This document shows positions 1 through 22,890 of a stretch of DNA of 64,000 nucleotides, one piece after another. How positions within the stretch are numbered: position 1 is the first letter of the stretch; each line of letters starts with the position of its first letter. The stretch spans positions 1 to 64,000 of the forward strand of contig CAVTNR010000027.1 of the NCBI GenBank assembly GCA_963736115.1. Reading direction: 5' to 3'. The stretch comes from an uncultured bacterium (lineage in GTDB: Bacteria; Zhuqueibacterota; QNDG01; DTFT01). The notes below the pieces were generated by a model. The model searched no databases, had not been told where the DNA came from, and worked only from the letters and a program-made list of their open reading frames with translations. The translations under genes were made by a program, and so were the position numbers.

Positions 1-47
1 GTCAATAATAATAATCGTTATTAATTTAGGGAAAGTTTGACTTAAAG

Positions 48-882: not shown

Positions 883-906
883 GGCTTCCTCCCGTGCGGG
901 CGGCAA

Positions 907-4700: not shown

Positions 4701-4972
4701 AAAGCCGCCAGAGCCTCGTCGAAATGGTTCACGGCATCAGACGCGTTCGCGGACGCGAGCCCCAGGTTGTACCGGCTTTCGCCGATGTAATAGTATCCCA
4801 GTTCGGCTTCCGCGGGCGTGCGTTTCATCCAGGCCCGGATGGAATCGATGGCGGCCTGGTATTCTCCGCGGTTGAAAAGCTGGAGCCGGCTGGAGCCGAA
4901 AAAGGGCTCCTGCGCCGACGCCGCGGCGCAGAAGAGCATCGCGATAACCGTGAAGACCTTCTGGATGCGCAT
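1786..4972 (-). CDS. Large secreted TPR-repeat protein with C-terminal NHL-type beta-propeller; several frameshifts
   Basis: Signal peptide MRIQKVFTVIAMLFCAAASA; TPR-like YYIGESRYNLG, ALYMEGE, AAYFLGEI; NHL-like LKSPEGVAADSRGNVYVVDW, FCYPSRIAV. Pieces in ORFs 3467..4972, 2788..3387, 1383..3002. Stop at 1786 overlaps the DAGK start (ATGA). Confidence 0.65.
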
Positions 4973-5052
4973 GAAAGGAACCTCGCTGTCTATGAAGTCC
5001 GCCAGTTTCTTTCGGATGAGACGATTGATCTCAAAGTGAAATAATCCGTTAA

Positions 5053-5081: not shown

Positions 5082-5303
5082 CTCCTTTAATTCCATCCCC
5101 TTATGCAGGCAGGAAAACCCGGGTAAAAACATGCATTCCATCAATGCACAAACCAAGCCGTTCTATTGAACTTAGCGGCTTTCTGTGACATTTTCTTCAA
5201 AAATGAAATAATGCCCGGAACGGAGATCACGAACCATCATCAAGACACCCTTCATCGCGCTCCCAAGAACCCGCGAATGAATGTTAACAGCTCCTACCGG
5301 ACG

Positions 5304-8300
5304 TCATTTCATGAGCATCATTTTCCTGGAGACCGTGAACCGTCCTGCTTGAATCCGGACGACATAGATGCCGGACAGGACAGCCGCGCCGGTCCCGTCC
5401 CTCCCGTCCCAGACCACGCTGTGCCATCCCGCATTCTTTCTGCCCTCCAGGAGGATTCGGACCCGCTGGCCCAGGGCATTGTAGATCTCCAGCCGGACAT
5501 CCGATGCCCTCGGCAGTCCGAAACCGATGGTGGTCTCCGGATTGAAGGGATTCGGATGGTTGGGAAGCAAGGTGAACCGGAGAGGCGCCGTCATGAAGGC
5601 GGAATTCTCCTCCGGGTATTCCACGCCGTCCCATACGGTGATGAATCCCGTATTCCTGTTGTCGTGATGCAGTTTCGGCCAGTCGCTGTCCGCCAATCCC
5701 GCGCTCCCGGTGTGAAAAGCGTACAGGTTTCCATCGTTCCATCCGACGAGAACCGTTCCGTCCTGCGCGATGGCCGGTGCGCTGCATCCGTCCGCGCCGT
5801 GAATCGGATAGGACCAATGCAGGGTTCCGTCCGGATTCAACGAATAAAAACGGGAATCGCCGGAACCAAAATAGATGCGGCCGTCGGAATCCACCGCCGC
5901 AGAAGAGGAGATCGGACCATCCGTCTGGAAGACCCAGGCCGTTGAACCGTCCGGATTCACCGCGAACATTCGTCCGTCACCCGATCCGCAATAGATCACG
6001 CCCCCCGGACCGAGGACGGGATCCACGAAGGACGCTCCTTCGACGGGATATGCCCAGAGCAGGGTATTCCCATGCAGAGCCAGCAAAGAATCCCCGGCAC
6101 CGATATAAAGCCGGCCGTATCGATCGATCGCAGCCGATGTGAAATCCCTGCCTTCGCTGAACTCCCATGCAGGGTTGCCGTCTCCGTAAATCGAGATCAA
6201 GACGGACCCTTCCCCCGGAGAAGTCCTTTCCGCTCCGAAGGTGACAACACCGAACGACCCTATTGCAGGATCTGAAACGGCCTCGAACCCGTCATTCGCC
6301 ATGTTCCAGTTCATGGAACCGTCATCCAGGAGACAGAAATATCCGAAAAAAAGCGCATTGTCGTGGGTTGCCGGCGTTACTCTTTTCCAATTCCGATCCG
6401 CGTACCCTTCGGCCGTCCATTTCACGGTACCGTCTGGAGACACTGTTTTTCCCTTGAAATACACGGATCCGTCCTCGAGCAGCACGGGATCCGTTTCATT
6501 GTCCGTTTCTCCGAATCCGACGCTCCACCGCAGGGATCCATCCGGATGAAGCGCATGAAGCCCGTTCCCGAACCAGGGCGATCCGACATAAACGGTGCCA
6601 TCCGTGCCGACGGCCGGCGATGAATGGAAATGGTAACTGAATGCGTCCCCCATTTCGTTTCCGACGGGGGCGCTTCCGACGAAGGCCGTCCATTTCAACC
6701 CGCAATGGATCTTCACGAAATCCGACGAGGATGCGCCGGAACCGTCCGACACCGTCAATCGGAACCGGTATATTCCGTGTGTCGAAAGCCTGACGGTGGC
6801 CGAAGCGTTTTCCGGTGTCGTGATCACAACCGAGGCCCCTTCCGGTTTTTCAAGGCATTGCCAGGAGTACGTCATCGGGCCCGGGTTCGGGCTGAATGAG
6901 TCGCTCCCGTCGAGTGTGATGGGCACTCCCGGATTGGTCTGCAGACGGTTCGAAGCGGCGATCGCCACCGGCGATCCCTCTTTCAGAAGACATCCCGTGT
7001 TTCCGGGGTTGCCTTTTGTTTTGGCCCAGGGGCCATCCCCCAGGCCGGATCTGCCGGAAAAGATGGCCTTCAATTGCCCGCCGTGCTGGATGATGACTGT
7101 GCTGTCCGGTGTCAACGCCGGGGATGAGGATGCGATCGGGGCGAGTATGTACCACGACACGGGTTCCAGATCCAGATTCAACGCGTAGTAGAAATTATTG
7201 CCGTCCCCGACATAGATCCGTCCGTCGGACCCGATTGCGGGTGTGGATTGAACGGGACCAAGGCTGTTGTTCATCAGATGACCCGTTCGATCGCTTCCAT
7301 CCGGATTCAGCACCGTCATCCCGCCGATCCCGTCCCCGAAATAGACGGCGCCGTCCGCATCGACAACAGGCGAGTTCGCCACCCATGCATACGGCACGAC
7401 TCGATGCCATCGCATCTTCCCGTCCACGTCCACCGCGAACAGTGCGCCGTCTTCGCCTATGGGATTCCCACGAAAATATTTCGCGACTCCGACGTATACC
7501 GTCCCATCCGCCCCGAGCCCCGGCACGCCCGTGATTTTCGAGAGTGTCCCGAATTTCCATTTCAGGGAACCGTCCCGTCTGAGCGCGAACAGCGTGTCCC
7601 CGGAAGCGGCGTATACCGTGCCGCCGGTGCCGATCACAGGCGCATAAATGACCGGACTGCCTGTGAAAAAGCTCCATTTGGGTCCGACCGAAGCCGGTTC
7701 CATGGATTCTGGGAGATCGTCAAAAGAAGTGCCTGCGGCTAACCTGGATACACGTCCATCCTCTGAACCGACATACAGGTCCCCGTCCGGTCCGATCGAA
7801 GGCGACGTGTACTTCTTCCCCGCCTCCCCGTTCAGCATCCATTTCAGCGTTCCAGCCGGATCCACAGCGAACAGCATGTCCGATGCGGCTCCGTAAACCG
7901 TACCGTCCGCTGCCAGCGCCACGGGCTCCAGAACGGCTCGATCCAGTTTTTTCGTCCATTTCTCCGTCCCGTCCGGATTCAATGCCACCAGCATTGAATC
8001 AGCGGACCCCGCATAGATCGTTCCGTCCGGCCCCACGGCCGGACAGGAGATAAATCCGTTTCCCGCGTCCCCGTATGTCCACAGGATGTCGCCGGGTTCG
8101 GGCGGATTCACGGGCGGCTCCTCTTCCCCTGCCGCCTGGACGCTTCCCGAATTGCGGGTGTCGTGTCTGAACTTCGGCCACGGCGCGTCGGCAAGTCCTC
8201 CGCTCTCCGTGCGGATCGCGTACACCCAGCCGTCGCGCGACCCGACATACAGAATCCCGTCAGATGACATGGCAGGAGAAGACCAGACCTCCCCGCCCGT

Positions 8301-10346
8301 GTACACGGTCCACTCCACCGCACCTTCCATTGTCACGGCATACACTCCGGCGTCATGACAGCCCACATAGATCCGGTTGTCAGCCCCGACCAGGGGCGAG
8401 GACCAGATCTGTCCCGGAACGTCCAGTGTCCATTTCTCCGTTCCATCCCGGTTCAGGGCCAGGAGCTTGTTTTCCCGGAGTCCGACGAGGATCGTCCCGT
8501 CCGGGGCGATGGCAGGTGATGACCAGATGTTCCAGGACGCGGTGTAATGCCATTTCTCCGATCCGTCCGCGTTTACAGCGTACACCCGGTTGTCCCCGCA
8601 TCCGAAGTAAACGGTGCCATCCGTGTCGATGGCCGCGGATGTCCCGATGCCTCCCCCGGCCGTGAACCGCCATTTCTCGCTGCCATCCGGTCTCAGCGCG
8701 TAGAAGTTTTTATCGTCCGCGCCGAAAAAGATGGTGCTGTCTCTTCCGATCACGGGAGACGAGTACACGGTGGCGCCGGTCTCGAAAGTCCATTTCGGGC
8801 TCCCGTTTCCGTTGATCGCATGAAGCCTGTGATCCAGGGATCCCGCGTAAACGGTCCCGTCCAGGGAAACCGCGGGAGTGGAAATAATCTGTCCGCCGGC
8901 CCGGTATGTCCACTTCACGGTTCCGTCCGTATTCACCGCGTGCAGAAGGCTGTCCGTGGATCCGACGTATACCGTGCTGTCCGGCCCCACGGCAGGAGAG
9001 GCGATGATCGCTCCATGGGTCCGGTAGGCCCACTGCGGCGTCCCGTCCGGATTCACGCCGTGGAGCGAGCCTTCCGCGGATCCGATGTAAACCGTACCGT
9101 CGGAACCCAGGGCCGGAGAGGACCACTGGATGTTCGAGTCTGTGTCGAAACGCCAGACAATACGGGGATCGAGAACAGGATCTTCCCCCGGGTCCGCGTC
9201 ATCCAGAAGACTCCCCGTATTCCTGATATTCGCCTTCGATTTGACCCAGCGGCCGTGAGCCAGACCGCTTCCCTCATTGTCCATCGCGGAGATAGCCCCG
9301 TGCGCGACGATCACCGAACCGTCATCGGCAAGAGTCGGTGAAGCGGAATTCATGCTCATGTCATAGTAGTACCATCCGGTTCCCGAAGGTTGCGGATTGG
9401 CGGACAATTGTGTGTTCCCGCTCCCGATGTAGATCGTACCATCCAGTCCGATCGCGGGAGTGGATGTCGCGGGAGCTGAACTCTGATTGAGCATCCAGCC
9501 TTTCTTGTACGTTCCATCGGGATTATAAATGGCGAATGCGCCGTAGAGACTCCCGATACAGACGGATCCGTCCGGTGCGACAACCGGTGAATTCGTGAAT
9601 CGAACCCCTTGAATCGTGTTTTTCCGCCAGAGCTGTTGGCCGCTGTAATTGACCGCGAAGAAGTACGCTTCAACGTTATTGGGGAAGAGTTCTCCGAGGC
9701 CGGTGGCGACGTAGGTGACTCCCTCGTCGGTGAGCGCGGGAATCCCGCTGATCGGATTGACGGTCCCGAAAGCCCATTTCCGGGTTCCATCCGGTTTCAT
9801 CGCGTACAGCGTGTCGGCTGATGCGACGAAAATCGTGCCTTCTATACCAATGGACGGTGAATGGACGACCGGACCGCAGGTCGGGAATGACCATTTCACT
9901 GAGCCGGAGGGATGTACGGCGTGGAGATGACCGTCTTCGGACCCGACGTATACGGTTCCGTCAGGGCCGATGGAGGGAGATGTCAGTTTTTTTCCGTCCT
10001 GAATGATGAATCCCCACTTGAAAGAACCGTCCGTGCGCATGGCGATCAGTTCATGGTGGGCCGAAATGTAGAGCGTGCCGTTCGAGGCCAGGGACACAGG
10101 CTCGCGGATAGGCCACCCCACTATTCTCTCCCATTTCAGGGACCCGTCCTGATTCAACGCGACCATTTTCGAATTCCAGGATCCCGCATAGATGGAACCG
10201 TCCGGCCCGATCGCGGGACAGGAATGGAAATCGTCAGACGGAACGCCGTACGTCCACTTCACGGAGCCCGGAACCGGGATTTGCGCCTGCGAGACGTTGA
10301 GAAGGAGGAACAGCGAGGAAAGGACCTGAGCGGGCAAGCGTTTCAT
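5304..10346 (-). CDS. Secreted 1680-aa protein: four PQQ-like/BamB-type beta-propellers, a PKD-like domain and a FlgD-Ig/T9SS-type C-terminal sorting domain
   Basis: Signal peptide; many SSPAxxxDGTVYVGS..LxAxxxDGxxKW repeats; ITLDGSDSFSP..YSWQ..YRFRLTVSDG; C-terminus NHPNPFNPETTIGF..VWDGRD..SGIYVVRI..RKMMLMK. Confidence 0.9.
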   Translation of the reverse strand: MKRLPAQVLSSLFLLLNVSQAQIPVPGSVKWTYGVPSDDFHSCPAIGPDGSIYAGSWNSKMVALNQDGSLKWERIVGWPIREPVSLASNGTLYISAHHELIAMRTDGSFKWGFIIQDGKKLTSPSIGPDGTVYVGSEDGHLHAVHPSGSVKWSFPTCGPVVHSPSIGIEGTIFVASADTLYAMKPDGTRKWAFGTVNPISGIPALTDEGVTYVATGLGELFPNNVEAYFFAVNYSGQQLWRKNTIQGVRFTNSPVVAPDGSVCIGSLYGAFAIYNPDGTYKKGWMLNQSSAPATSTPAIGLDGTIYIGSGNTQLSANPQPSGTGWYYYDMSMNSASPTLADDGSVIVAHGAISAMDNEGSGLAHGRWVKSKANIRNTGSLLDDADPGEDPVLDPRIVWRFDTDSNIQWSSPALGSDGTVYIGSAEGSLHGVNPDGTPQWAYRTHGAIIASPAVGPDSTVYVGSTDSLLHAVNTDGTVKWTYRAGGQIISTPAVSLDGTVYAGSLDHRLHAINGNGSPKWTFETGATVYSSPVIGRDSTIFFGADDKNFYALRPDGSEKWRFTAGGGIGTSAAIDTDGTVYFGCGDNRVYAVNADGSEKWHYTASWNIWSSPAIAPDGTILVGLRENKLLALNRDGTEKWTLDVPGQIWSSPLVGADNRIYVGCHDAGVYAVTMEGAVEWTVYTGGEVWSSPAMSSDGILYVGSRDGWVYAIRTESGGLADAPWPKFRHDTRNSGSVQAAGEEEPPVNPPEPGDILWTYGDAGNGFISCPAVGPDGTIYAGSADSMLVALNPDGTEKWTKKLDRAVLEPVALAADGTVYGAASDMLFAVDPAGTLKWMLNGEAGKKYTSPSIGPDGDLYVGSEDGRVSRLAAGTSFDDLPESMEPASVGPKWSFFTGSPVIYAPVIGTGGTVYAASGDTLFALRRDGSLKWKFGTLSKITGVPGLGADGTVYVGVAKYFRGNPIGEDGALFAVDVDGKMRWHRVVPYAWVANSPVVDADGAVYFGDGIGGMTVLNPDGSDRTGHLMNNSLGPVQSTPAIGSDGRIYVGDGNNFYYALNLDLEPVSWYILAPIASSSPALTPDSTVIIQHGGQLKAIFSGRSGLGDGPWAKTKGNPGNTGCLLKEGSPVAIAASNRLQTNPGVPITLDGSDSFSPNPGPMTYSWQCLEKPEGASVVITTPENASATVRLSTHGIYRFRLTVSDGSGASSSDFVKIHCGLKWTAFVGSAPVGNEMGDAFSYHFHSSPAVGTDGTVYVGSPWFGNGLHALHPDGSLRWSVGFGETDNETDPVLLEDGSVYFKGKTVSPDGTVKWTAEGYADRNWKRVTPATHDNALFFGYFCLLDDGSMNWNMANDGFEAVSDPAIGSFGVVTFGAERTSPGEGSVLISIYGDGNPAWEFSEGRDFTSAAIDRYGRLYIGAGDSLLALHGNTLLWAYPVEGASFVDPVLGPGGVIYCGSGDGRMFAVNPDGSTAWVFQTDGPISSSAAVDSDGRIYFGSGDSRFYSLNPDGTLHWSYPIHGADGCSAPAIAQDGTVLVGWNDGNLYAFHTGSAGLADSDWPKLHHDNRNTGFITVWDGVEYPEENSAFMTAPLRFTLLPNHPNPFNPETTIGFGLPRASDVRLEIYNALGQRVRILLEGRKNAGWHSVVWDGRDGTGAAVLSGIYVVRIQAGRFTVSRKMMLMK

Positions 10347-10484
10347 GGTGTCTCCCTCCCCGTGGAATGGATACCGATGGCTGCCGGGAATGACCCAGAA
10401 GGCGCTTCGGGGGCGAAGCGGTCCTGTGATTCCCAGGGCGGCGATGAATCGGATATCGAAAAGCGCGGAACGCGCCGGAGAAGA

Positions 10485-11132
10485 CTACTTGACCACCCGG
10501 ACGAGCGGCGGATCGATGCCCGTCACGTTGTGGAGCCGGCCGTCGAGAACCGGAATTTCCCGGTCGATGTCCGGGTTCCGTTTCAGCCCGGACGTGTAGA
10601 TGATCAGCTTCTCGCCTTCGGAGGGCAGATTGAAATGGAATACCACGCGTCCGCTCTTGAGCGGCTTGTACACCCACGACTTCACGGACTGGACGATAAA
10701 CCGGCCGGCCCGGGCGTGGTCCACGTCGATCACGTCCGTGATCGCGATGCGTCCGTCGGACCCGATCATGGCGTACACCCGCACGTCGGCCCGGTAGTCG
10801 ATCACCTGAAGCTGGCGCCAGTCGACGGGCTCGGACCGGAGCAGGTCCACTGAGAAGACATTGGGTTTTTCCTGGGGAATGTCGATGAGGATGCCGTATA
10901 TGCCGGGCCGCCTGGGGACTTCGATGATTTCGCTGGCTGCCATTCGCGGCGTGAAAGGCTTGTCCGATGGCAGACGCAGATACAGCGCCGTGAGCAGGCC
11001 CGAGACGGCCAGAATCGGAACGGCCGCCAGCAGCCAGATCCACCACCGTCTTCGGGCGGATCCTGCGGATTTTGCTTCGGTCCCCGCCCGTGTGATACCG
11101 GCGGAGGCCCGAAGTCTGCCTTCGGTCCTCAT
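10485..11132 (-). CDS. TonB-family energy transducer-like protein (single TM, TonB_C-like domain)
   Basis: TM WWIWLLAAVPILAVSGLLTALYL; VYAMIGSDGRI..QSVKSWVYKP..VFHF resembles TonB_C; ATG at 11132 overlaps the exbD stop. Confidence 0.65.
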   Translation of the reverse strand: MRTEGRLRASAGITRAGTEAKSAGSARRRWWIWLLAAVPILAVSGLLTALYLRLPSDKPFTPRMAASEIIEVPRRPGIYGILIDIPQEKPNVFSVDLLRSEPVDWRQLQVIDYRADVRVYAMIGSDGRIAITDVIDVDHARAGRFIVQSVKSWVYKPLKSGRVVFHFNLPSEGEKLIIYTSGLKRNPDIDREIPVLDGRLHNVTGIDPPLVRVVK

Positions 11133-11737
11133 GTGCCCGTCCCCTCGAAATCGATCCGGATCAGGCGGCGCAGGTTCCCGTCCGGGTCCGTCCGTTCCAG
11201 AACGCCCATCCGAAGGTCCGCCAGGGAGCCTCCCACGCACCCGTATTCCACGTTTCCGTACTTCGCGGAGGACAGTTTTGCCACGGCTTCGATGATGCGC
11301 GCGTACGGCACCTCGTTGGGACAGCGGAGCAGGGCGAAATATTTGCGGCTCGGATTGGCGTCGGCCTCCTCCACCACCGCCTGGAGCTTACGGTCCAGCT
11401 GGTCGGCGCTCATCTTGTTCTGTATCTTCAGGAGCGCCACCGTCTCGCGGTTCTGCTCCTCCGGATTCATGTAGGAATACTGGTCAAGCACGCGCTGGAC
11501 CTGCGAGGAGGCCGCCTGGTCGATCCAGAAGACGGACTGGTTGTCGATCCACTGGATGAAAATCTCGGCGGATCCCAGGTCGTATTTAGGCGTGGGGAAA
11601 ACGAAGCGCTTTTCCAGCTTGGCGTTGGTGGCAATGTTACTGGTGACCAGGAAGAAAAGCAGCAGGTTGAAAATCATGTCCATGCATGAGACCAGCTGGA
11701 TATCCTTCCGACCCATGATCCGTCTTTTGAAAGCCAC
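11129..11737 (-). CDS. exbD: Biopolymer transporter ExbD/TolR family (copy 2)
   Basis: IQLVSCMDMIFNLLLFFLVT TM with conserved Asp; LRCPNEVPYARIIEAV. Confidence 0.85.
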   Translation of the reverse strand: MAFKRRIMGRKDIQLVSCMDMIFNLLLFFLVTSNIATNAKLEKRFVFPTPKYDLGSAEIFIQWIDNQSVFWIDQAASSQVQRVLDQYSYMNPEEQNRETVALLKIQNKMSADQLDRKLQAVVEEADANPSRKYFALLRCPNEVPYARIIEAVAKLSSAKYGNVEYGCVGGSLADLRMGVLERTDPDGNLRRLIRIDFEGTGT

Positions 11738-11749
11738 GAACCGTCTCCT

Positions 11750-12352
11750 TTACATCGGATGGCTGAACGTCCGCACCGAGATCGACGGGATCGAGTCGCC
11801 ATGGGCGCTGCATTCCCGCATGATGAAGTTGACGATGCGGAATTCGGTGTCTTTCACCGCCCGGATCTCGACCCGGGGCGGAAACCCCGACGGCCGGTTC
11901 CGCCTGTCCATGTGGTCGCGGATCTGCTCACGGATCAGCCGGCAGGCGCGCGTGCTGGTGAATTCCTCGTCGGAGAGCGCAAGGAAGCTGTCCGGGAAAG
12001 CCGCGACCAGCGAATCGCGGATCGCCGACCGCCGGGTCTGTCCGATCGTGGAATCGCGTTCCGACGGACGGAGGATGTAAACCAGGCGGCTGGAGGCCGG
12101 GTTGTCCGGGTCCCGGTTCTCGATCTGGATGAGCAGGGACCGGAGAATCGGGTCGATGTCGACCACCTTCGGGCTCGCTACGAACGGAAGCTTCAGCTCG
12201 CTCGACGCCGGAGAGCGCTGCTCCTGAGGCTGAACGTTTTCCGTCCGTTCGACGGGAATCGTCACCAGCGAGAAAATCAGCAGCAGGAACACCACGTCGA
12301 TGAGGCTCGGCAGATTGAGCTCTTTCTGTTCCCGTTTCTTCTGAAAGGCCAT
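11750..12352 (-). CDS. exbD: Biopolymer transporter ExbD/TolR family (copy 1)
   Basis: LNLPSLIDVVFLLLIFSLVT TM with conserved Asp; EIRAVKDTEFRIVNFIM. Confidence 0.88.
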   Translation of the reverse strand: MAFQKKREQKELNLPSLIDVVFLLLIFSLVTIPVERTENVQPQEQRSPASSELKLPFVASPKVVDIDPILRSLLIQIENRDPDNPASSRLVYILRPSERDSTIGQTRRSAIRDSLVAAFPDSFLALSDEEFTSTRACRLIREQIRDHMDRRNRPSGFPPRVEIRAVKDTEFRIVNFIMRECSAHGDSIPSISVRTFSHPM

Positions 12353-12379
12353 CGTCGGTTCCCCGGGGCGCCGTTCGGT

Positions 12380-13745
12380 TTACAGGCGCTCAATGACGTA
12401 TACGTAATCCTCTTCCCACTTGGAATATATCCACTCGAGCTTTTTCTGATAGTAGTAATAGATCATCATGAAGGTGATGCCGAAAATCAGGCCTTCGATG
12501 GTCGTCCAGAGCGCCTCGTGAATGCCGCCGGCGAGCTGGTGAATGAGCTGCTTCTGGGTCGCGTTGTCCGGCAGGTTGGCGAGGTCGTCGAACGACTTGG
12601 AAATGCCGGTCACCGTCCCCAGCAGGCCGAGCAGGGGCGCCACAGTACCCAGGTTCCAGAGGAAATCGTACACCGAATCCCGCTTCAGAACTTCCAGTTC
12701 GGAAGCCGCCTGGTTTTCAATGGATGTCTCCACTTCCTTGGCCACATCCATCCAGCGAAAACCGCCGGTCTCGTGATTCTCGAGTCCCGCCTTGAAGACG
12801 CGGACCGTGGGGTATTCATCCAGCTTTTTGTGCGCGATCTCGTCGATCAGCTTGCGCACCTCCACGCTGCCGCGCTCGCTCCAGTATTTCACGCTCGCGC
12901 CGGACAGGTCGTTGGTGGAGGACTCGAGTTGGCCGCGTCTCTTGCCGATGAACTCGCGGATGCCCCAGTTGGCGCTGTCGATGATCTGCTTCCACCGCTC
13001 CAATATGTTCGTGAATTCCGGTGAAATCCGCGCCGCGTAGTCCTTTTTAATGTCCCGCATCAGTCCGCGGTTGCCGCCGCTGCTCATCGGGAAAATTTTC
13101 TGAAACTTGAGCGTGGGCATGCAGCGGAAAAAGATGATGAAAGTCCTGCCAGCCACGCCCACCAGAGCAGCCAGAAGCAAAGCCGACCGATGACGGAGGA
13201 GGAGTCGTAGATCGACGGCCGCCAGAAATACGCCCAGCGTCCGCTGATCGGCAGATATTTTTCAAACCAGTATACGGACTTCTCCCCGCCGGAGCCGGAA
13301 CGCACGATGTCGTCGTTCGACGCATCCCCGCCCCGCCGTCCGGCCGTGTCCCGCGCGATTTCGGACTCCGCGACCGGAACGCCGTCGTGGAGCGCCTCGA
13401 CCGTGAACGCATACGCCTGCCCCACGTCGAGCCCCTTGAACTCATAGCGGCCGCCGGCGACGGGCTTTGACACGATGGATTCCCCCTCCGCGGGCTGACA
13501 GGTTACGCGGTAGGTGTACCGTTCCGGGTCGGCCGGTCTCCAGACTTCGCCCTCGCGGACCTGGGCGCTCCAGGACACGTCATAGTCGACCTTGTCCGGA
13601 ATAAAAATCCACTTTTTATGGACGTCTCTCCGGATGCCGGTGATGGCGACCTGGGCGGCGGGATCCTGTCCGAACAAGGAGACGCCGTAAAACACCAGCC
13701 CCGCCAGGCAGAGGCGCTTCAGGCGCGTGATGGAATCGAACGCAT
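12380..13745 (-). CDS. exbB: MotA/TolQ/ExbB proton-channel protein with N-terminal signal peptide and FN3-like domain; frameshifted
   Basis: C-half LGTVAPLLGLLGTVTGISKSF..LAGGIHEALWTTIEGL; N-half YEFKGLDVGQAYAFTVEA (FN3-like); AGGAGG RBS before ATG 13745; frame breaks near 13725 and 13145. Confidence 0.8.
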
Positions 13746-14089
13746 GGGATTTGAACCTCCTGCTGACTGGGTTCGGCGGGCCGTCCGGAACCGGGTTCCG
13801 GGACACACGGACGCACGCCTGGGGATTTTGTCTCTGATGAAGCCGGCTTCCCGCCGCGACCGGCGGGGGTGCCGTCTGAATGAAGAACTCCGCCGCCCGC
13901 TGCGCGGGACCATGCTATCAAATGCCCTCTGGTTGAAGGCAAACAGCGGGGTACCTCAGGAAACTTGGATGATCGCCGCCGCACCGCTTCGCGGCACCGG
14001 GGAATCCGACTCGTCGGAGCGGCCAGAAGCCCGATCTCCGATCATCCGGAAAAACTGGAACCAGAATGGCCAAGATTCTGTCCGCCCGA

Positions 14090-15170
14090 TCAGAACAGAT
14101 ACTCGACTGAAAACCTGCGATAATCGAGCCGGAGGTCCGTCAAATCATCCTCGACCCGTCCGAACACAAAGCGGAGCGGCATTTTCTGGAAATCGACGTT
14201 CACTCCCGCCACCCGTACCAACGAGAGCAGGCTTCTGGGGATGGTCACGGTGACCCCGGCCTCCCACCCGGCGCCCTGCAGGGTGCGGAGACCGCCTCCA
14301 CGCAGGCCGTAGCGGATGCGGTTGACCGGAAGCCAGGCGCCGGACAGGACCAAATGGCCGCCCGGCATGACCACAGCGTCGGTTCCGAGTGCAATTTCGG
14401 AAATCGTTCCTGAATAATGCTTCAGGCCAGTGGAATACCAGCATTGACGGCCGCGCACCCAGGGGTCCACGGCCAGAAACGTGTTCTGCAGAATTCTGAC
14501 CCGGGGCGTCATTTCAGCGCCCATCCCGATCTGGGAGAGGAGCAAAAGCCGTTCCTGAATCGTGAACGGAACCGCGGTTTCCCAGCTTTGGCGGAAGCCG
14601 ATTCCGATGTCCGCGTAGCTTTTCAGATGGGTTTTCGGGTACAGGGGGTCGGTAAAACGCCGGTAGGAGTCAAAATCCGACCAGTAGTTGTATTCCAACC
14701 GGAGAGAGTGGCCTTTTCCCGGACCTGCCAGGAGCGGCTTGATTCTCGGAGGCGGCATCACGAAACGCCGCGTTCCGGAGATCCGCTGTCGGCCATTTTC
14801 GTCGAAAGCCACAACCCTCCACAGGTAGCTGCCGTGTTTCCGGAACACCTGCCTGGGATTTTGAACCCCAGGCCTGGCCGTATCCCGTCGAGTCTTCCGC
14901 CGTGACCTTCACGTTCCGCCTGAAATTCTTCGCCTTGTCCCAGATCTGCACTTCGAAGAAACCCGGCTGGAAAGTGGAATCGATATCCTGCGCCTTCCAG
15001 CTGAACAGGACCGCCAGACCATCGACCTTTCGGCCGTCGGCCGGCGTGATCAGCAGGAGCCGTGCCGGACGGGTCTCAGCCCGGGCCGGAACTGGACCGG
15101 ACTGCAAAACCGCGAGGCAGGCAAAGGACAAGAGGAAGGCGGTTGATCGCGCGCTTTTCATGTGATTCAT
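14090..15170 (-). CDS. Hypothetical outer-membrane protein (N-terminal FN3/Ig-like domain, C-terminal beta-barrel-like region); one frameshift
   Basis: Signal peptide; LLITPADG..FSWK..YLWRVVAFD; amphipathic strands ending FSVEYLF; removing one base of the homopolymer at 14866-14869 joins ORFs 14670..15293 and 14090..14848. Confidence 0.6.
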
Positions 15171-15186
15171 CCCGGGGTTGGTTCGA

Positions 15187-17249
15187 TCAGCGGCCGGCGC
15201 GGACTTCGGCCGTCCGGCCGGTGAGTCCATGCGCCTCGGAATAAGCGTCCAGCAGGGTTTCCGCCGCGGCCTGAAGTCCCTCGGCATCGTCATTCGAGAG
15301 CATCTGAATCAGGTCGTCGGCCATTCCGCCCGCGGTGCGTCCGTTCGTCAGGAGGGGATAGAACCGGTCCGCTTCCAAAAGAGCGTTGACCCCGTCGCGG
15401 ATCCGGCCCATTCGGATCAGGCAAACGCCGACGAGCAGCTGGGCGTCATCCACGCAGTAGCCATCCTCGAACACCGGATATCTCGGATAATCTTCGTCGA
15501 GACGTCCCTGGCAGTGGGTCAGCATGTCCTCCAGAACCCGCAGGGCCATGGCATTGCGGTTGTTCCGTATCAGGGACTCCGCCAGTCCGAGGGCCGAAAG
15601 ACAGTCCATGCTGTACAGAACAGGATCTCCCCGATCCCGATGCTCTGGATGGCGCTGTCAAACGCCGCGATCGCGGCATCCCAGCGGCCCAGGCCCTTGA
15701 ACGCGGCTCCGGTCAGGTAATGGGTGCGGAGGGATGTTTGATCGACCTCGCGGAGAACCGGCACCGCGGACTCGGGCTGTCCGGTGAGCAGGAGCATCTC
15801 GCCGTAATGGGTGAGCTGAAGATCGGTCAGGGGATTCTCCTGCCGGCTGAACAGGGCCGCGTATTCGCGCGCCGCGTCCGCGCCCTTGCGGCGCGCTTTT
15901 TCAATCTCGTTCCGTTTAAGCAAATCCACGGCGCTTCGGTACATCCACTCGGCCCGGTCAATGCCGACCAACAGGTCGTTGTAGCGGGATGCGTTGCGGC
16001 TGTCCGATTCGGCCAGCACCTTGATGGTTCCGTTCACGTCCGGGTTCGGGTAGTCGGCGACGATGTTCAGCAGAGGGCCGGTGTCGCCGCCCGCGCGCTC
16101 ATACCAACGCCGGAAAAACCCCGCGTCGCGGGGGACGCCGAACTGGAAAGTCATGGACATTCGCGTATCGTTCGGGAGATTGGGGTGCAGTTCATGGGCG
16201 AGATCGATCCGGACCGCGGCCGATTTCGCGAAGGGCACGGTCAAGCCGGTGCCGAGCGACATCCATTCGGCCTGGTTGTTGACGCCGAAACGGGGCGACC
16301 ACAGCAGATGGCGCCTCAGGATCGGGATCCGGCCTTCCGCGCCGAAATAGACGCCGGTACCGGAGCCCTCGGCCTTCTCCCAATCGAGGGCCGTCAGGAT
16401 GTCGACGTCCTCAACGACCGACTGGACCGCCTGCCAGCTCCTGGGAACCCAGTCCTTCAGCACCCAGCGGTAGGCGAGTCCCCAACGTACCGAGCGCGGG
16501 AAAGGATCGTTTTCTCCTGACTGGAGCTTCCAGGCGGGCTGAATGAGGTTCTGCACTGAGACGCCAAACCGGAGCGGCAGGACGTACCGGAGCGAAAACG
16601 ACCGGAACAGGGGCGCGTGAATCGGCTGGAAGGTAGCGCCGACATCCGCGCCCGCGGACCAGTCCCTGCCCTCCGCGCCCGGAGCCATGCCGGCCGCGTC
16701 CGCGAGTCCGGAAAATCCCTGGTTGACGGCCTTGACGGTGACGCCGGTCCTCAGAAGGCCCCACGATCCCGCCTCTTCCCTCGCCCAAGCCGCGGCAAAA
16801 GCGTTTTCTTCAAGCCCGAAACGGCCGACGAATTCGGCGGTTGCCGTGCGCTGTTCGAAATCGACCATACCGAGCCCGACCCAGCCGAAGCCCACCGCGG
16901 TCCGTGGGCCGAACAGAAAACGGAGCAGGGGATTTTTCGGATTGTCCAGCGGCCGGGGCAGAACCATGCCCAGATGCGAGTAGCGGCTGTCGAAGTACAG
17001 GTTGGAATAGAGGGACTGGATCTCGATGCGCGAAGCCCCCACGAGTCCGGCTGGATTCCAGAACACGCCGCTGGCGTCGTCCGCGATTCCCACAAAGGCG
17101 CGGCCCATACCGAGCGCCCGGCCGCCGACGCCGTAGCGAAGGAATGCGCCGGCCCTTCCGGCGTCCCCCTCCGGTCCCGCGAAGGCGAACGCCGCCGTCC
17201 ACAAACTGATCAATGCGATGAAACCGCCGGTGCTTTTGATTTTATCCAT
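15187..17249 (-). CDS. PorV/PorQ (UPF0164, FadL-like) family barrel fused to a C-terminal TPR region; one frameshift near 15635
   Basis: GAFLRYGVGGRALGMGRAFVGIADDASGVFWNPAGL signature; TPR-like HYLTGAAFKGLGRWDAAIAAF and AQLLVGVCLIRMGR. Confidence 0.85.
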
Positions 17250-17266
17250 GGTTTTGACCGTCCCGT

Positions 17267-18355
17267 TTATCTGAGCACTGCGATTTTACAGTACTGTTTC
17301 TCCCGGCCTTCCACCACGCAGAGGTATCCGCCCGTGGAAACCAGGTCCCCCCTGTCGTTCCGGCCATCCCATTGGAAAAACAGGTCCGCCGTATCGGATT
17401 TCCGCAGGACGCGGACCAGGCTTCCGAACGGATCGAAAATGCGAAGCACGGACGCTTCGGGCGCGGGCACCTGGATCACCGCAATTTCCCCGGCCGTCGG
17501 CCGGAAGGGATTCGGAAAGGAGAACATCCGGAACTCCTCAACCGGAATCCAGAACAGGTCGATCGACTGGACATCGGAAGACTGGCCCGCTCTGTCCCGG
17601 ACCCAGACCGACAGGGTCACCCTCTCGTGGGCCGGAGTTTTGAGCGCGTTCATGGTCAGGACCGTGTCAACTTCCGTCCGGGGAGGAACGATGTCGTAGA
17701 CTACCGTTTCATCCACGAAGGCGCTCATCTCGTGGACGAACACTTCCATGACGCTTCCCGTCGGCAGATCGGAGGCGATAATATGGTGATTCAGTGCCGG
17801 CCCGATGATCCACCGGGCCGTCTCGCCGGACTGAAGGCCCGAGAGCTCCCAGAGTGACAGAACGGGTGGATGCGCATCCTGGATGGAAACCTGCGGTCCC
17901 GACCAGTGGCTGAGACCGAATACGGCCGCAGCGTTCCGGGTATAATAGCGAAGACGGTACGAGACCGGGGGGCCTTCGGGCAGTCCGATAAAAACGGCCG
18001 AATCCGTGCCGGCATTGGCGAATCCCCAGAGCACCGCGGTTGTCCCGTCCGCGTCGTACGACGCCTGTATTTCGTAGAAGAGGAGCGTGAGACCTGCGGC
18101 GACGGACTCGGTTTCGATGCTGTCCGCGGGCCAGGTCAGCGTGTTCGATTCTCCAAGCGTGAATTCGGGCTCCCGGAAAAGCCTCGGGGCGGGAAGCGTG
18201 GGCTCCAGGTCCGCGGGCAGGGCGGGCAGAACCGCCGCGATTCCCGGGGGTGTTCTCCACGACGGGTCCCGTTCCGTCCCGTGAAAGAGGGGGCCGGCGG
18301 CCAGAAGGCCCTGAATCAGCATCAGCAGACACGGCAGGATTCGGGTGGTTCTCAT
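17267..18355 (-). CDS. Secreted protein with FN3-like domain and FlgD-Ig-type C-terminal domain
   Basis: Signal peptide; C-terminus FSFPNPFRP..LRIFDPFGSLVR..WDGRNDRGDLVSTGGY..KIAVLR. Confidence 0.85.
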   Translation of the reverse strand: MRTTRILPCLLMLIQGLLAAGPLFHGTERDPSWRTPPGIAAVLPALPADLEPTLPAPRLFREPEFTLGESNTLTWPADSIETESVAAGLTLLFYEIQASYDADGTTAVLWGFANAGTDSAVFIGLPEGPPVSYRLRYYTRNAAAVFGLSHWSGPQVSIQDAHPPVLSLWELSGLQSGETARWIIGPALNHHIIASDLPTGSVMEVFVHEMSAFVDETVVYDIVPPRTEVDTVLTMNALKTPAHERVTLSVWVRDRAGQSSDVQSIDLFWIPVEEFRMFSFPNPFRPTAGEIAVIQVPAPEASVLRIFDPFGSLVRVLRKSDTADLFFQWDGRNDRGDLVSTGGYLCVVEGREKQYCKIAVLR

Positions 18356-18392
18356 TTCCGGAATCTCCAGGTTCGGGTCACGGGAATCGGTT

Positions 18393-21300
18393 TCATCGGA
18401 TCATGACCATCTTGATGCGTTTCGCGTAGGTCCGTCCGGTCGTTTCCGATTCGGCGGAGAGAATCGCGATATAGAGGCCGGACGCGACGGGACGGCCGTT
18501 CCGGTCGCATCCGTTCCAGGCGACGGTCTGACGGCCGGCCTGCCGGGTTCCTTCCACGAGCCGGTCGACCAGCGCGCCCCGGACATCCACCACCATGAGC
18601 CGGACCCGGGACGGATCCCGCAGATCGAAGCGGATGGTGGTCGAGGCGTTGAAGGGGTTCGGAAAATTCTGGCTCAGGCCGAAAGATTCGGGCAGGCCTG
18701 CGTCTGCGCCGGAAGTGGATCTCGGATCGATGCCGGGCGTCGGAGCGAAGAAGGACGGCGCGGACCATCCGCTTTCGGCAATGAATCCGCCTGCGCTGCG
18801 CCGGGCCTTGATGCGGAACCACGTCGTGTCGCACTGGATGGAGCCCCATCCGGTCGGGCAGACAAAGGACGTATCGGACATCCACACGCTCCGGCAGACC
18901 AGGCTGTCGAGACCGGCCGGCGCGTTCATCTCGTACGCGTACCGGAAATGCCGCAGGTCCATGGCGATTTCGACGACGTACTGGACCGCGCCTCCGGCCA
19001 GCGGCTGCCAAGCGCATGCGCGTTTTCCCTTCGGATCGGGCGGCGCCGGCGTGCTGACCCGGAACGCCGGCATCTGCCAGCCCCCTGACATCCGGTTGCC
19101 GGCACTGTCGACCGATACGATGCGGTAATGGGTTCCCGCGTTCGCCGACGTGTCGGCCCACACATAAGGCATATTCGCCTGATGCACGGGCTGGATTCCG
19201 ATCAGTGTTTCCGGCCCCTCTTCCAGGCCGCGGAAAATTTCGAAGGCGGCGACGTTTCCGATGAGGTCGTTCCAGTTCTCCTGCGGATCCACCGGGTATT
19301 GAACGCCGGCGCTGCTCCATTCCAGGCGCCGGATCACGCTGTCCGGTGAGGCGTAGTAGGCGGTGACCGATTTAAAATCCACGGCGCCCACGGCGCGGGG
19401 CGGCACGGGATCGAAGATGACGGTTTGAACCGGATAGAAATCATCTGACCACAGTTCCTCGACGGGGTTCCCCCACGGGTCTGAGGCCGTGACACGGAAA
19501 TACAGTTTTGCGTTTTCGATATTGCTCAGGTCCGGAATCGGCACGCGCCGGTTGCGGTTCAGGGGATCGGCCGGAAACGGGCCCTGCGTCCGGGTCTGGG
19601 CCGGGTCAGCCGGAAATGAGCGCGATACGCTCACCTGGAGCCTGACCAGGACCGCGCCGCGGGTACCCGTGACGGGAACGACGGCTCCCGGTACGCCCGC
19701 CTCGACTGGGACGGGATTCCAGTGCCAGGACACATTGATTGAATCGGAATTGAAATACCGCATGCTCAGGGGATCGACATCCGGAATGTAGGCGGAACCC
19801 CGGTCGCAGATTTCATCCTTCACTTCGGCGGCCACGACGTGATCGAGGCTGTCCAGCGCGAACACGCTGTAGCTGTACAGGCGGCCGTTCACCAGGGTGC
19901 CGGAGAAATCCATGTATGAGGACTGGCGGTTCGACAGCATCAGGTCAAAGGTGTCGCCGGCCGCGGTTCTCACCAGCTGGAACCGGCTGACCCGGAGGCT
20001 GTCCACGAACGAATTCCCCCAGTGCGCGAATATCCGTCCGCGCGGCTGGGCCAGCACGGCCAGATCCACTTTCCGGAACGACACCGTGTAGGGCTGAGAC
20101 CAGGCGCTCCGCCTCCCCTGCGAGTCGTGGTTCGGAATCTCGAGCACCTGGAAAATCGAGTTGCGGCCGAGGGTCACGTTCCGGTACGTGTATGTCGTGT
20201 CGTCGTCCGCGATCGTGTCGGTGACCGCCGTGCCGGTTGTGCTGTCGGAGAAGACGCGGATCACGGTCGTGAAATCAGACGGGAACAGGTTGGGATGCGG
20301 CCGGGTCCAGGTGAGTTCAATGACAAGCCGGCCGTTCTCGGTCTTGACTTCGTGCGACGTGATGCGCGGGGGCCGGTTGCAGAACGCGGAAACGGTGTCG
20401 GACGGGGGCGTCATTTCATTGAAGAGATTCAATTTTCGCACGGTATACCGGTAAACCCTGTAGGTTTCGAGCGTGTCTCCTGGCTCGTCCTCCATCTCGT
20501 CCTGTCCGTAAAAATCCGTCCACTTCAACGTATCCGCAGAGGAGGTCAGCAGGCCGACGGTTCTGGCGTTCCGTCCGTCCGTCCAGCGGAGGATTTCGTA
20601 TCGGAGCACGTCCTCCGAAGGCCTGAGCCACCGTAAATGGATGTGCCCGCCCCAGTAAGCGGTGTCGCTCCAGGCTGTCAGGCCCTCCACGGGCAGGCGG
20701 GAAGCGCGGATGACGACCTTGACGCCGGACCAGACGCTCGAACGGCCGGCGGGGTACAGCGCGCGGATCTTGATCCGGGACGTTTCCTGACTCAACTGAA
20801 GAAGGAGTGTGTCGACGCCGGTGTTTCGGTGCGGCGTTTCCACGCCGTTGATCGAAATGCGGTAGGACAGAACAGGACCGACGTCGAAAGACGCGAGCCG
20901 TAACGCCACGGAAGAACCCCGGACGAACAGGGTGTCGGGGCCGCGAAGGAGCCGGTCTGGCGGAAGCGTATCCACGAAGGAGAGCGTCGGTCCGCCGAGC
21001 GCCCGTTCACCGGTTTCGAAAACAGACTGTTCCCAGGTCCGGACATTGCCGACGAAATCCTCCGAGGCGATCCGGTAGCGAATCATCGCATTGCGGACGT
21101 CGACTTCCGGCCGGTCCGTCAGACGGTCCGTGTATGCGGTCCGGCGGTACGGGCCGGTTCCGGGGATTTCGCTGAACACGGTGTCAGTACCGATGATTTT
21201 CCGGTACAGCCGGTATCCCCTGAGCCCGCTGCCCCCATCCGTCGCCGGATCCCAGGTCAGCTTCATGTGCCACCTGGAATACCCGGTCGAGGGCGAAACC

Positions 21301-22847
21301 GCGTCCGGATCCTCGACCGACGCGTCCACGCGCAGGTTCCGGATGTCCTCGGGCGGGAAACAGTCGGGAATCGTGCCGTCGAGAACGAGGGTGTCCGTAC
21401 TGCCCAGATACTGCCGGATGATACGGCGGTGATAGACGTGGCCGTTCACGAAGTCCAGCGGGATGGTGTCCCCGCGGCTGTAGTCGAACACATGGAAGGC
21501 TTCATCGTAATTCGAGGGATTTCGGACGACCTGGTTCAGAAGCAGCCAGCCGCTGTCGAACACGCGGCCGCCCAGGGGCAGAACCTTTCCGAAATACAGG
21601 ACACTGTCCCTCACGGCCTGAAAACGCAGTCTCTGCTCCAGACCGGTCAGGGTCAGGCGGAGCGTGTCGACCGGGCCTTTGCGATACCGGGAATCCGCCG
21701 CTGAATCGGGAACCGCGGTTCCGTCGCCACCGTCTCCGGGGATCGGATTGGGATCGACCGCGGTCCCGGATGTCACGCTGTTCGTACGCACGCCCTCCCC
21801 CTCGTTCCCGACCCGGTCCGCGGCACGGACCCGGTAATACGTCGGAACGCCGGGTTTGACACGCGTCTCATAGGTGAGCGTGACAGGCTGATCGGGATTT
21901 GCGAAAACCGTGTCAATGGGGATTTCCGCGCCTGTTCCCTCTGAGCGGTAAATATGGTATGCGGATACGCCGCTCACCGTGTCCCGGACCGTGCTCCAGG
22001 ATACCAGCACGGTGTATGTGCCGGCCAGAACCGCCTGGCTGAATTGAACGGGTTCCGGAGGCGTCCGGTCCTGCGTCGAATAAGTGAAGTCGGAGTAGAG
22101 GATGAGCGCGTCTGATTCGAAACCGTACGCGGCCTTCACATAATATCCGTATCTGTGACCGTCCAGCAGTCCCTCAAAAGCCGCTTCGAGCGTGTCTCCG
22201 GGATTTCTCCGGTACAGGCGGCGGAGCGATTTCATCAGGTTCGTGGGATCGTTCCTGTCGAAGCAGTATACATCCTGGATCTGGGCCGCGTCCGAAGGAA
22301 TCCACCGTATCACATTCACGGATCCGGCTGAAAAGGACGGTTCCGGAACGATCACGGGCGGCGCCAGGGGAGGCTCGATCACGGTGATGATGAATTTCAG
22401 ACGGCAGGCCTCTGCCTCGTCATAGGAGGACAATCCGTACCGGATGAAACCCTCGACCATGAATGAATCAACGCCCACGGACGACAGTTGCTCAGGTCGT
22501 ATAAAAAACGTGTTGTCGAGTTCTCCGAGATAGGACGGCAGAGTGTCTGCTTTGTCGACCCAATTCTCCACATAGGGCGGCAGATCGTACTTCGGCTTGT
22601 CCGTATAGCGCCGGAGCCAGATCAGATTGGGTTCATCGCCTCTGTGCCTGTAATGCGCAGTCATCTTGTACGCAGCGATCTGATGCCGCATCAGCGTCAG
22701 ATGATACGTGCTCTTGTCGACCGAGCGGATGGATTTTCCGGTGGAAAAATCCTCCAGTTCGAACCAGAGCGCGGCGCGCGCCGACCCTTGCATGCAAAAT
22801 AAAAGAAAAAACAGGCAGAATAGTCTAGCCTTCCACCCTTTTTTCAT
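18393..22847 (-). CDS. Large secreted multi-FN3/Ig-domain protein with FlgD-Ig/T9SS-type C-terminal sorting domain
   Basis: Start MKKGWKARL at 22847 with GGAGG RBS; repeated DxxSGVxxYxIYR, YYRVRAADRVGN, YRIVSVDSAGN; C-terminus QNFPNPFNASTTIRF..WNG..ASGLY..KMVMIR. Confidence 0.88.
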   Translation of the reverse strand: MKKGWKARLFCLFFLLFCMQGSARAALWFELEDFSTGKSIRSVDKSTYHLTLMRHQIAAYKMTAHYRHRGDEPNLIWLRRYTDKPKYDLPPYVENWVDKADTLPSYLGELDNTFFIRPEQLSSVGVDSFMVEGFIRYGLSSYDEAEACRLKFIITVIEPPLAPPVIVPEPSFSAGSVNVIRWIPSDAAQIQDVYCFDRNDPTNLMKSLRRLYRRNPGDTLEAAFEGLLDGHRYGYYVKAAYGFESDALILYSDFTYSTQDRTPPEPVQFSQAVLAGTYTVLVSWSTVRDTVSGVSAYHIYRSEGTGAEIPIDTVFANPDQPVTLTYETRVKPGVPTYYRVRAADRVGNEGEGVRTNSVTSGTAVDPNPIPGDGGDGTAVPDSAADSRYRKGPVDTLRLTLTGLEQRLRFQAVRDSVLYFGKVLPLGGRVFDSGWLLLNQVVRNPSNYDEAFHVFDYSRGDTIPLDFVNGHVYHRRIIRQYLGSTDTLVLDGTIPDCFPPEDIRNLRVDASVEDPDAVSPSTGYSRWHMKLTWDPATDGGSGLRGYRLYRKIIGTDTVFSEIPGTGPYRRTAYTDRLTDRPEVDVRNAMIRYRIASEDFVGNVRTWEQSVFETGERALGGPTLSFVDTLPPDRLLRGPDTLFVRGSSVALRLASFDVGPVLSYRISINGVETPHRNTGVDTLLLQLSQETSRIKIRALYPAGRSSVWSGVKVVIRASRLPVEGLTAWSDTAYWGGHIHLRWLRPSEDVLRYEILRWTDGRNARTVGLLTSSADTLKWTDFYGQDEMEDEPGDTLETYRVYRYTVRKLNLFNEMTPPSDTVSAFCNRPPRITSHEVKTENGRLVIELTWTRPHPNLFPSDFTTVIRVFSDSTTGTAVTDTIADDDTTYTYRNVTLGRNSIFQVLEIPNHDSQGRRSAWSQPYTVSFRKVDLAVLAQPRGRIFAHWGNSFVDSLRVSRFQLVRTAAGDTFDLMLSNRQSSYMDFSGTLVNGRLYSYSVFALDSLDHVVAAEVKDEICDRGSAYIPDVDPLSMRYFNSDSINVSWHWNPVPVEAGVPGAVVPVTGTRGAVLVRLQVSVSRSFPADPAQTRTQGPFPADPLNRNRRVPIPDLSNIENAKLYFRVTASDPWGNPVEELWSDDFYPVQTVIFDPVPPRAVGAVDFKSVTAYYASPDSVIRRLEWSSAGVQYPVDPQENWNDLIGNVAAFEIFRGLEEGPETLIGIQPVHQANMPYVWADTSANAGTHYRIVSVDSAGNRMSGGWQMPAFRVSTPAPPDPKGKRACAWQPLAGGAVQYVVEIAMDLRHFRYAYEMNAPAGLDSLVCRSVWMSDTSFVCPTGWGSIQCDTTWFRIKARRSAGGFIAESGWSAPSFFAPTPGIDPRSTSGADAGLPESFGLSQNFPNPFNASTTIRFDLRDPSRVRLMVVDVRGALVDRLVEGTRQAGRQTVAWNGCDRNGRPVASGLYIAILSAESETTGRTYAKRIKMVMIR

Positions 22848-22890
22848 GATTCTGGCCTCCGTTGTCGGACAACTGTACTCAAATTTATAA

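Follow-up and report, generated by a model that had tools for sequence, protein, structure and literature searches.

We describe a gene unit in a 64,000-nucleotide (nt) stretch of DNA (the window; positions 1 to 64,000 of contig CAVTNR010000027.1, GenBank assembly GCA_963736115.1) from an uncultured bacterium of the phylum Zhuqueibacterota, in which the genes of a Ton/Tol-type motor share one train with those of a PorV/PorQ-family outer-membrane barrel and of surface proteins with tails of the kind found in type IX secretion systems (T9SS). The train has the order A-B-C-(D)-E-F-G-H-I, nine parts of which D is optional, and is real and far from chance, as the order is identical in 42 of 42 related loci. 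It is a strongly conserved envelope gene unit and apparently an undescribed one: no description of such a unit was found in the portions available to us of the literature on PorV with ExbB/ExbD, on T9SS distribution and on type IX secretion in KSB1. From its composition we infer, with moderate confidence, a dedicated Ton/Tol-like, proton-driven and envelope-spanning motor, bridged by H, I and the TPR domain of C, that would act on a PorQ-like anchor holding the T9SS-delivered proteins A and B.

Every named gene lies on the minus strand of the window, and the parts are as follows (aa, amino acids):

18393..22847, minus strand: A, giant FN3/Ig-rich secreted protein with a T9SS-type tail; uninterrupted open reading frame (ORF) of about 1484 aa from the ATG at 22847
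17267..18355, minus strand: B, secreted 362-aa protein with a C-terminal T9SS-like tail (FlgD_ig and PorZ C-terminus matches)
15187..17249, minus strand: C, PorV/PorQ-family outer-membrane barrel with C-terminal TPR (PorV_fam; 687 aa when intact)
14090..15161, minus strand: D, signal peptide, Ig/FN3-like domain and beta-rich C-terminus (about 356 aa when intact; AlphaFold2 (AF2) model, weak Ig/fn3 matches)
13746..14089, no strand: D-E intergenic gap of 344 nt with a dispersed repeat (units at about 13877-13951 and 13939-14089)
12380..13745, minus strand: E, stator subunit of the ExbB/TolQ type that has a signal peptide and, at its N-terminus, an FN3-like periplasmic extension (455 aa when intact)
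11750..12352, minus strand: F, long ExbD/TolR-like protein of 200 aa with a transmembrane Asp (ExbD E-value 6.1e-9)
11129..11737, minus strand: G, second long ExbD/TolR-like protein, of 202 aa, with a transmembrane Asp (ExbD E-value 3.6e-8)
10485..11132, minus strand: H, TonB/TolA-like protein of 215 aa (AF2 fold evidence, no Pfam match)
5304..10346, minus strand: beta-propeller/PKD protein of 1680 aa with a T9SS type A tail (Pfam and NCBIfam matches), a lineage-specific insertion
1789..5005, minus strand: I, periplasmic TPR and NHL beta-propeller protein (1076 aa when intact; in several frames in the window)

An earlier reading of this DNA from the letters alone (the sequence-only reading) had taken positions 5304-22847 as the full unit. 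Its gene content and shared strand hold. Its boundaries do not, as the conserved gene I sits outside them at about 1789-5005, and the propeller gene that it counted in is not part of the conserved unit.

Gene order was compared over 40 loci from 39 genomes of the window's phylum together with loci from genomes G001 and G003, giving 42 loci from 41 other genomes. A search with a profile of 45 E-family proteins, taking one genome per species, recovered 15 full-length loci, all with the same neighbours. Their labels are candidate division KSB1, 'bacterium' and, probably in error, Deferribacteres and Cytophagia; several of the 42 loci are the same contigs as among these 15. All 42 loci have E, F and G; C, H and I each occur in 41, and A, B and D in 35, 34 and 21, respectively. 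Of the seven loci that lack A, six are cut short by the end of a contig, and the remaining one (L160) has a different tailed protein of 1261 aa upstream. Gaps between neighbouring module genes have medians of 3-29 nt, and C stands directly before (D)E in every locus where the contig allows (41/41), at median gaps of 26-29 nt. No TonB-dependent receptor was seen among the ORFs of the related loci.

Phylum-wide profiling covered the E and I families. E is found in 61 of 167 phylum genomes, in 42 of the 105 of high quality and in 28 of the 30 from the window's order, and I in 62 of 167; 58 genomes hold both, three hold E alone and four hold I alone. In most of the seven discordant genomes either the match is weak or partial or the genome is incomplete (G052, G053, G071, G036 and G078). 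The tallies include two genomes flagged as unpublished (G158 and G162), both SprA-positive and without the module, and they describe the phylum without testing anything, related genomes not being independent samples. The linkage across relatives on which the sequence-only reading had leaned is borne out by the 42 collinear loci of 42 and by the joint presence of E and I in 58 of the 65 genomes holding either. In genome G037 the unit is duplicated and diversified: contig C14 has two copies (L151 and L160) about 38 kb apart, and in one of them two additional genes, of 713 and 660 aa, separate C from E.

Among the motor genes, E matches MotA_ExbB (PF01618) at an E-value of 3.8e-21 and 75.6 bits, against a cut-off of 22.9, and its upstream part has a weak fn3 match (E-value 8.1e-4, 20 bits against a cut-off of 25). 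For ExbD/TolR (PF02472), with its cut-off of 25.4 bits, F scores 36.5 and G 34. The aspartate of ExbD/TolR that lies in the membrane is essential to these proteins, and the motif of an aspartate with a hydrophobic membrane helix recurs in 41 of 42 orthologues each of F and G, the two misses being over-extended start calls. The ExbB-ExbD-ExbD trio named in the sequence-only reading therefore stands, with all three matches above their cut-offs.

The E family is sharply bounded. Among the best 8000 word-sharing candidates scored, 57 proteins of about 400-460 aa match at E-values of 2.5e-50 or below, and the next are ordinary ExbB/TolQ proteins at 2.6e-12. In a tree of 104 rows (42 module orthologues cut to their C-terminal 265 aa, the window fragment, two other proteins of the same genome and 59 ordinary matches), all 43 rows from the module fall together on one side of a branch whose SH-aLRT support is 100 (quick search, LG+G4). 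The ordinary rows were 59 of the 63 proteins P0058-P0120, four being excluded for lengths outside 190-280 aa. The sequence-only reading had allowed that these genes might branch with ordinary receptor-serving systems; module ExbB proteins instead form a clade of their own, apart from ordinary ExbB/TolQ. The genome has three MotA/ExbB-family genes, which belong to a canonical TonB operon (exbB-exbD-exbD-tonB-PBP-TPR), to a Tol-Pal operon on contig C13 (tolQ-tolR-tolA-tolB-ybgF) and to the module. Because the genome keeps separate canonical TonB and Tol-Pal operons, the third motor, based on E, is plausibly dedicated.

H is modelled with the head fold of TonB and TolA. The AF2 model has a mean predicted local distance difference test (pLDDT) value of 84.7, exceeding 94 over residues 90-215, and shows an N-terminal membrane helix that about 35 linker residues join to a compact domain with the fold of the TonB C-terminal domain plus a C-terminal beta extension. 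TonB C-terminal domains rank first in a Foldseek search (E-values 0.012-0.06). In a comparison with 48,161 chains the six best are all TonB-family C-terminal domains (Z 5.2-6.7, root-mean-square deviation 3.3-4.1, 71-85 residues aligned), and TolA C-terminal domains rank after the TonB family at Z 4.0-4.9. By sequence, the three top matches of a profile of 14 H orthologues among Protein Data Bank (PDB) sequences are E. coli TonB, at E-values of 0.3-0.5 only, and TonB_2 matches one of the 14 orthologues at 0.22. H and its orthologues measure 190-220 aa in total and have no long proline-rich periplasmic spacer, and H would be too short to cross the periplasm alone. The TonB-like label of the sequence-only reading has this fold evidence behind it and no Pfam match.

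By its profile matches, C is a divergent member of the PorV/PorQ superfamily that is closer to PorQ and PorV2 than to PorV proper. All 37 orthologues match PorV_fam (NF033709) at E-values of 0.001 or below (best 1.6e-27) and all match PorV2 too; PorQ (NF033711) is matched by 30 of 37, PorV proper (NF033710) by 7, a YbgF/CpoB-type TPR by 10 and PorW/SprE by 1, and one orthologue has weak Toluene_X and UPF0164 matches. What had been called a PorV-TPR protein matches PorV_fam and TPR profiles. Its nearness to PorQ and PorV2 would make it anchor-like rather than a shuttle. The 250-aa TPR domain, as a C-terminal extension of the barrel, should be periplasmic. A complex prediction of C (residues 25-687) with H (60-215) scored 0.00, was run without controls and weighs neither for nor against binding.

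D remains without a family. Its AF2 model is confident at residues of about 34-135, which are Ig-like, with pLDDT below 50 for the remainder on a shallow alignment; among 18 orthologues, six have weak Ig matches and three weak fn3 matches. Searched against PDB sequences, D gave chance-level Ig matches only, and a profile-profile comparison with C gave no similarity. Outer-membrane proteins end in an aromatic residue, as D does with its terminal YLF.

A has a signal peptide, an FlgD_ig match at residues 1447-1510 (E-value 3.9e-8, 33.6 bits against a cut-off of 27) and a C-terminus that matches the PorU and PorZ tails; in this genome at least 45 ORFs match the PorU model in its tail region. An ESM Atlas search with A returned generic FN3 and tail clusters only. 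B, of 362 aa in the window, reaches about 990-1800 aa in other sub-types of the module. The propeller protein has BamB/PQQ-type propellers, a PKD domain and a TIGR04183 tail at 30.1 bits against a cut-off of 23. The sequence-only reading had counted all three as tail-bearing, with A and the propeller protein as cargo; the propeller protein qualifies by TIGR04183, A matches only the related FlgD_ig profile and the PorU/PorZ tails, and B falls below its cut-off. The propeller protein is nevertheless no component of the module: its gene is inserted between H and I in the window and G001 alone, and the 41 other loci, that of the same-genus G003 included, lack it there. A chance neighbourhood of tail-bearing proteins was considered, and is rejected for A and B by their conserved position and accepted for the propeller gene.

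I has a signal peptide, TPR stretches and a C-terminal propeller matched by NHL (E-value 1.7e-7), and the profile scan gave no TolB_N match. A profile search in which the best 8000 word-sharing candidates were scored found 11 relatives, all labelled hypothetical or TPR, and an ESM Atlas search returned generic TPR clusters only.

Known tasks of Ton/Tol-type stators are import (TonB), maintenance of the envelope (Tol-Pal) and gliding in myxobacteria (Agl-Glt), and in composition the module's parts list parallels Tol-Pal and, more closely, the Agl-Glt core complex. As in Tol-Pal, E scores best against TolQ, H has a TolA/TonB fold, a periplasmic beta-propeller and a YbgF/CpoB-like TPR are present, and the layout would suit a motor that works on a protein of the outer membrane by way of adaptors in the periplasm. 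Unlike Tol-Pal, the module has no Pal/OmpA-like gene, has two TolR-like genes, fuses TPR and propeller in one 1076-aa protein with no TolB_N match and is linked to T9SS-type surface proteins. The Agl-Glt core operon of Myxococcus xanthus comprises aglR, aglQ, aglS, gltD (1191 aa, TPR), gltE, gltG (TonB-like) and gltC, and the function of operons of this type outside myxobacteria is unknown, according to Luciano et al. (2011; PMC3169522). The likeness extends to three stator genes, one of the TolQ/ExbB type and two of the TolR/ExbD type, to a transducer that is TonB-like, to exported TPR proteins of which one has about 1100-1200 aa, to a single operon, a proposed proton-driven force on the cell surface, and paralogous copies in some genomes, as with the two copies in G037. 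The likeness is one of composition. H differs from GltG in having about 200 aa and neither its FHA domain nor its proline-rich spacer, and the module differs further in its PorV/PorQ-family barrel, its T9SS-tailed surface proteins, its FN3-extended ExbB and the NHL propeller on I.

In T9SS attachment in Porphyromonas gingivalis, PorZ is bound to PorQ, and PorU to PorV, through tails that stay uncleaved, and SprF-SprB is a pair of the same kind in Flavobacterium. The module resembles these pairs in that a PorV/PorQ-family barrel gene adjoins genes for tail-bearing surface proteins, and differs from them in the periplasmic TPR domain of its barrel, in being encoded with a Ton/Tol-type motor, and in a window barrel that scores below the curated family cut-off. 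A further comparison is with the TonB2 systems of Vibrio, which have an N-extended ExbB-like protein, TtpC. TonB2-like loci are the next-best genome matches to the E profile; one in Fibrobacter (L099, 3932-13912) encodes a receptor and DUF3450, then an N-extended ExbB-like protein of 517 aa, a short ExbB, ExbD and TonB, and lastly a TPR protein. Shared with the module are the MotA/ExbB-family protein with a long periplasmic N-terminal extension and the succession of ExbD, TonB and TPR protein. The receptor (Plug), DUF3450 and second short ExbB of TonB2 loci are all missing from the module, and the extension of the module's ExbB is FN3-like.

We suggest that these parts could work together as follows. 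A and B would be exported through the genome's own T9SS, of which SprA and PorU are present. Barrel C would then hold A and/or B at the surface by their retained tails, as PorQ holds PorZ, a role proposed because C resembles PorQ and because A and B have tails matching the ones on PorZ and PorU. The stator, made of E together with F and G, would energise H, which may reach the outer membrane by way of I and C's TPR tail, as TolA reaches Pal via TolB and CpoB, since H appears too short for the periplasm. Force from the proton gradient would thereby be applied to the complex of anchor and surface protein, moving, remodelling or releasing it. That the motor acts on C or on the surface proteins is read from gene content.

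Several observations weigh against this proposal. The tails of A and B lie near or under curated cut-offs: A has no TIGR04183 match at an E-value of 0.01 or below, and the tail of B matches FlgD_ig at 25 bits, under the cut-off of 27 (E-value 1.5e-4 for the PorZ C-terminus and 1.9e-5 for FlgD_ig). Window C scores 48.7 bits on PorV_fam (E-value 7.9e-13) against a cut-off of 90, C of G001 scoring 52.1, and the putative barrel of D has no confident model. H has no Pfam or NCBIfam match, with neither TonB_C (PF03544) nor TonB_2 (PF13103) at an E-value of 0.01 or below, and its fold scores are moderate (Z at most 6.7, below 8). Additionally, about ten of this genome's PorV-family genes have a TonB-dependent receptor gene 4-5 kb away, which favours import, and the window copy has at least nine frame breaks in the four genes C, D, E and I, so that the unit could be decaying in this organism.

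Import is the function that Ton-type motors classically drive, and the module could be a receptor-less variant of TonB-dependent uptake in which C (with D) forms a gated channel opened by H, and A and B, as binding proteins at the surface, hand over the substrate. The PorV family belongs with FadL-type channels, as the Toluene_X and UPF0164 matches of one C orthologue recall, and the receptor-adjacent PorV-family genes show such a pairing elsewhere in the genome. These cassettes with SusC-like receptors lie at contig C27 76050-83540 (L028 12044-19540) and in about nine further places (C27 129-144 kb, C10, C3, C12 twice, C4, C15 and C19); the one inspected has a receptor, a 1191-aa protein without a family, a PorV-like barrel and a GH95 fucosidase, and the design may be one of polysaccharide uptake using T9SS-type anchors. 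The module itself lacks the accompaniments of uptake. As the sequence-only reading had said, there is no TonB-dependent receptor in the window (1-64000): none of the genome's 23 receptor matches (PF00593/PF07715) falls there, nor does any Plug domain, and the first on C27 starts at 80970. Pfam and NCBIfam profiles give no hydrolase, carbohydrate-binding or SusD-like domain for A, B or the rest of the module; a periplasmic protein of TPR and propeller is typical of Tol-like rather than uptake systems; and a canonical TonB operon is already present for the 23 receptors. We consider import unlikely.

It is very unlikely, in our judgement, that the module powers T9SS export of A and B or replaces an undetected GldKLMN motor-ring, although the sequence-only reading had suggested an accessory T9SS motor. 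The genome encodes SprA, PorU and many PorV-family proteins outside the window, with the SprA gene on contig C3, so the statement that the window (1-64000) lacks SprA was correct. In this genome (87% complete) no match was found to GldM (TIGR03517), GldL (TIGR03513) or GldM_1st (PF12081), models that lacked a positive control, with GldN not searched; two FGE-sulfatase proteins score far under the GldK cut-off and lie outside any gldKLMN-like context. GldM (TIGR03517) matched 0 of 167 phylum genomes, from which absence does not follow, since the Gld models likewise matched none of the control genomes and 0 of 5 others, two Fibrobacter among these. Either the phylum's motor-ring is very divergent or something else drives secretion. 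The union of barrel and TPR in C also recalls PorV with PorW, in keeping with the one PorW/SprE match. The distribution argues the other way: because 163 of 167 phylum genomes have SprA and no more than 61 have the module, a role as T9SS motor is unlikely as a general function, about 100 SprA-bearing relatives being without the module.

Most improbable, to our mind, is that E-I form a second Tol-Pal-like system of envelope maintenance or division whose linkage to A-B-C is positional only. For this speak the scores of E (68.4 bits for TolQ, 35 for ExbB), the match of the H fold to TolA C-terminal domains as well, the pairing of TPR and propeller in I, like CpoB with TolB, and the YbgF matches of C's TPR in 10 of 37 orthologues. 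However, the 41 loci with C immediately ahead of (D)E are joined by 34-35 of 42 with A and B upstream, none of the loci examined has E-I without C, with E and I as the families profiled across the phylum, and the genome already has Tol-Pal.

The frame breaks of the window copy raise the separate question of whether C, D, E and I are pseudogenes in this organism. Compared with the intact genes of G001, one frame switch falls in C (about 15630), one in D (about 14867), one in E (about 13141) and five in I (1789-5005); comparison of the DNA with P0001, an intact 455-aa protein 99% identical to E, adds a one-base loss directly after the start codon of E (about 13735). Real frameshifts would accord with breaks confined to four genes, A, B, F, G, H and the 1680-aa propeller gene being uninterrupted, and with other long genes of the genome that are open, such as SprA (2066 aa) and the receptors. 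Against this, both breaks in E are, by eye, one-base losses in short A or T runs, and intact copies exist in G001 and G003 as well as in P0001. Window positions 1-7590 overlap another contig of the same genome (C24, 14206-21790) at 98.9% identity, and C24 holds I intact, at 1063 aa. In this overlap 35 of the 82 differing columns are insertions or deletions, a signature of consensus errors, and C24 and C27 are each broken in frame where the other is intact, which suggests residual consensus errors or co-assembled strains at contig ends. Because the differences are rich in insertions and deletions and C24 holds an intact I, we attribute the breaks to errors of consensus rather than decay: they are probably assembly errors, and loss of these genes is improbable.

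The gap between D and E, with a median of 29 nt in 21 other loci, measures 344 nt in the window and holds a repeat with units of about 70-150 nt that ends exactly at the D stop codon. The repeat has 77 other matches in the same genome and copies in the same-genus G001-G003; nothing in Rfam matched it, and it folds with an energy no better than that of shuffled sequence (z 0.12). A scan of the coding strand of the gap for promoters and terminators, a weak test, found no site. Upstream of A, a TTGACA box and an AT-rich CATAAT-like box can be seen by eye 40-75 nt before the start (window 22880-22925, minus strand), which the consensus scan passed over as their spacing is outside 16-18 nt. A consensus pattern for sigma-54 promoters matched the window 11 times, fewer than the 19.6 matches that chance would give, and no match lies just upstream of A.

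The GC content falls to 0.50-0.54 across window 22-26 kb. Two further tailed proteins are encoded upstream of the module on the minus strand (23884-25077, Big_7 and CBM4_9; 27583-29082, Big_2), and a sigma-54 response regulator is encoded at 29885-31231; full-length homologues of these were not found near the module in the 15 full-length loci. A Memo gene adjoins the module in the window.

These findings place a distinct stator clade, tied across the phylum to a barrel and tailed surface proteins of the T9SS kind; to our knowledge, such an outer-membrane barrel with tailed surface proteins is otherwise known only from the T9SS. As a compact unit of 8-9 genes with defined partners, the module suits structural modelling and heterologous reconstitution. 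We also entertain, as a doubtful extension, that it is the form taken in this phylum by a motor-to-surface machine that is widespread and undescribed in the FCB group and neighbouring phyla, and in which the stator would drag or actuate a T9SS-anchored giant FN3 adhesin via the PorQ-like barrel. If so, this would be a third independently assembled route to surface motility or force-bearing adhesion, beside GldLM-SprB gliding and the Agl-Glt focal adhesions. Should the motor act on T9SS-anchored proteins, as proposed here, two envelope systems that have been studied apart would become linked, and the module would offer a testable case of inner-membrane energy reaching the cell surface in uncultured bacteria of the FCB group.

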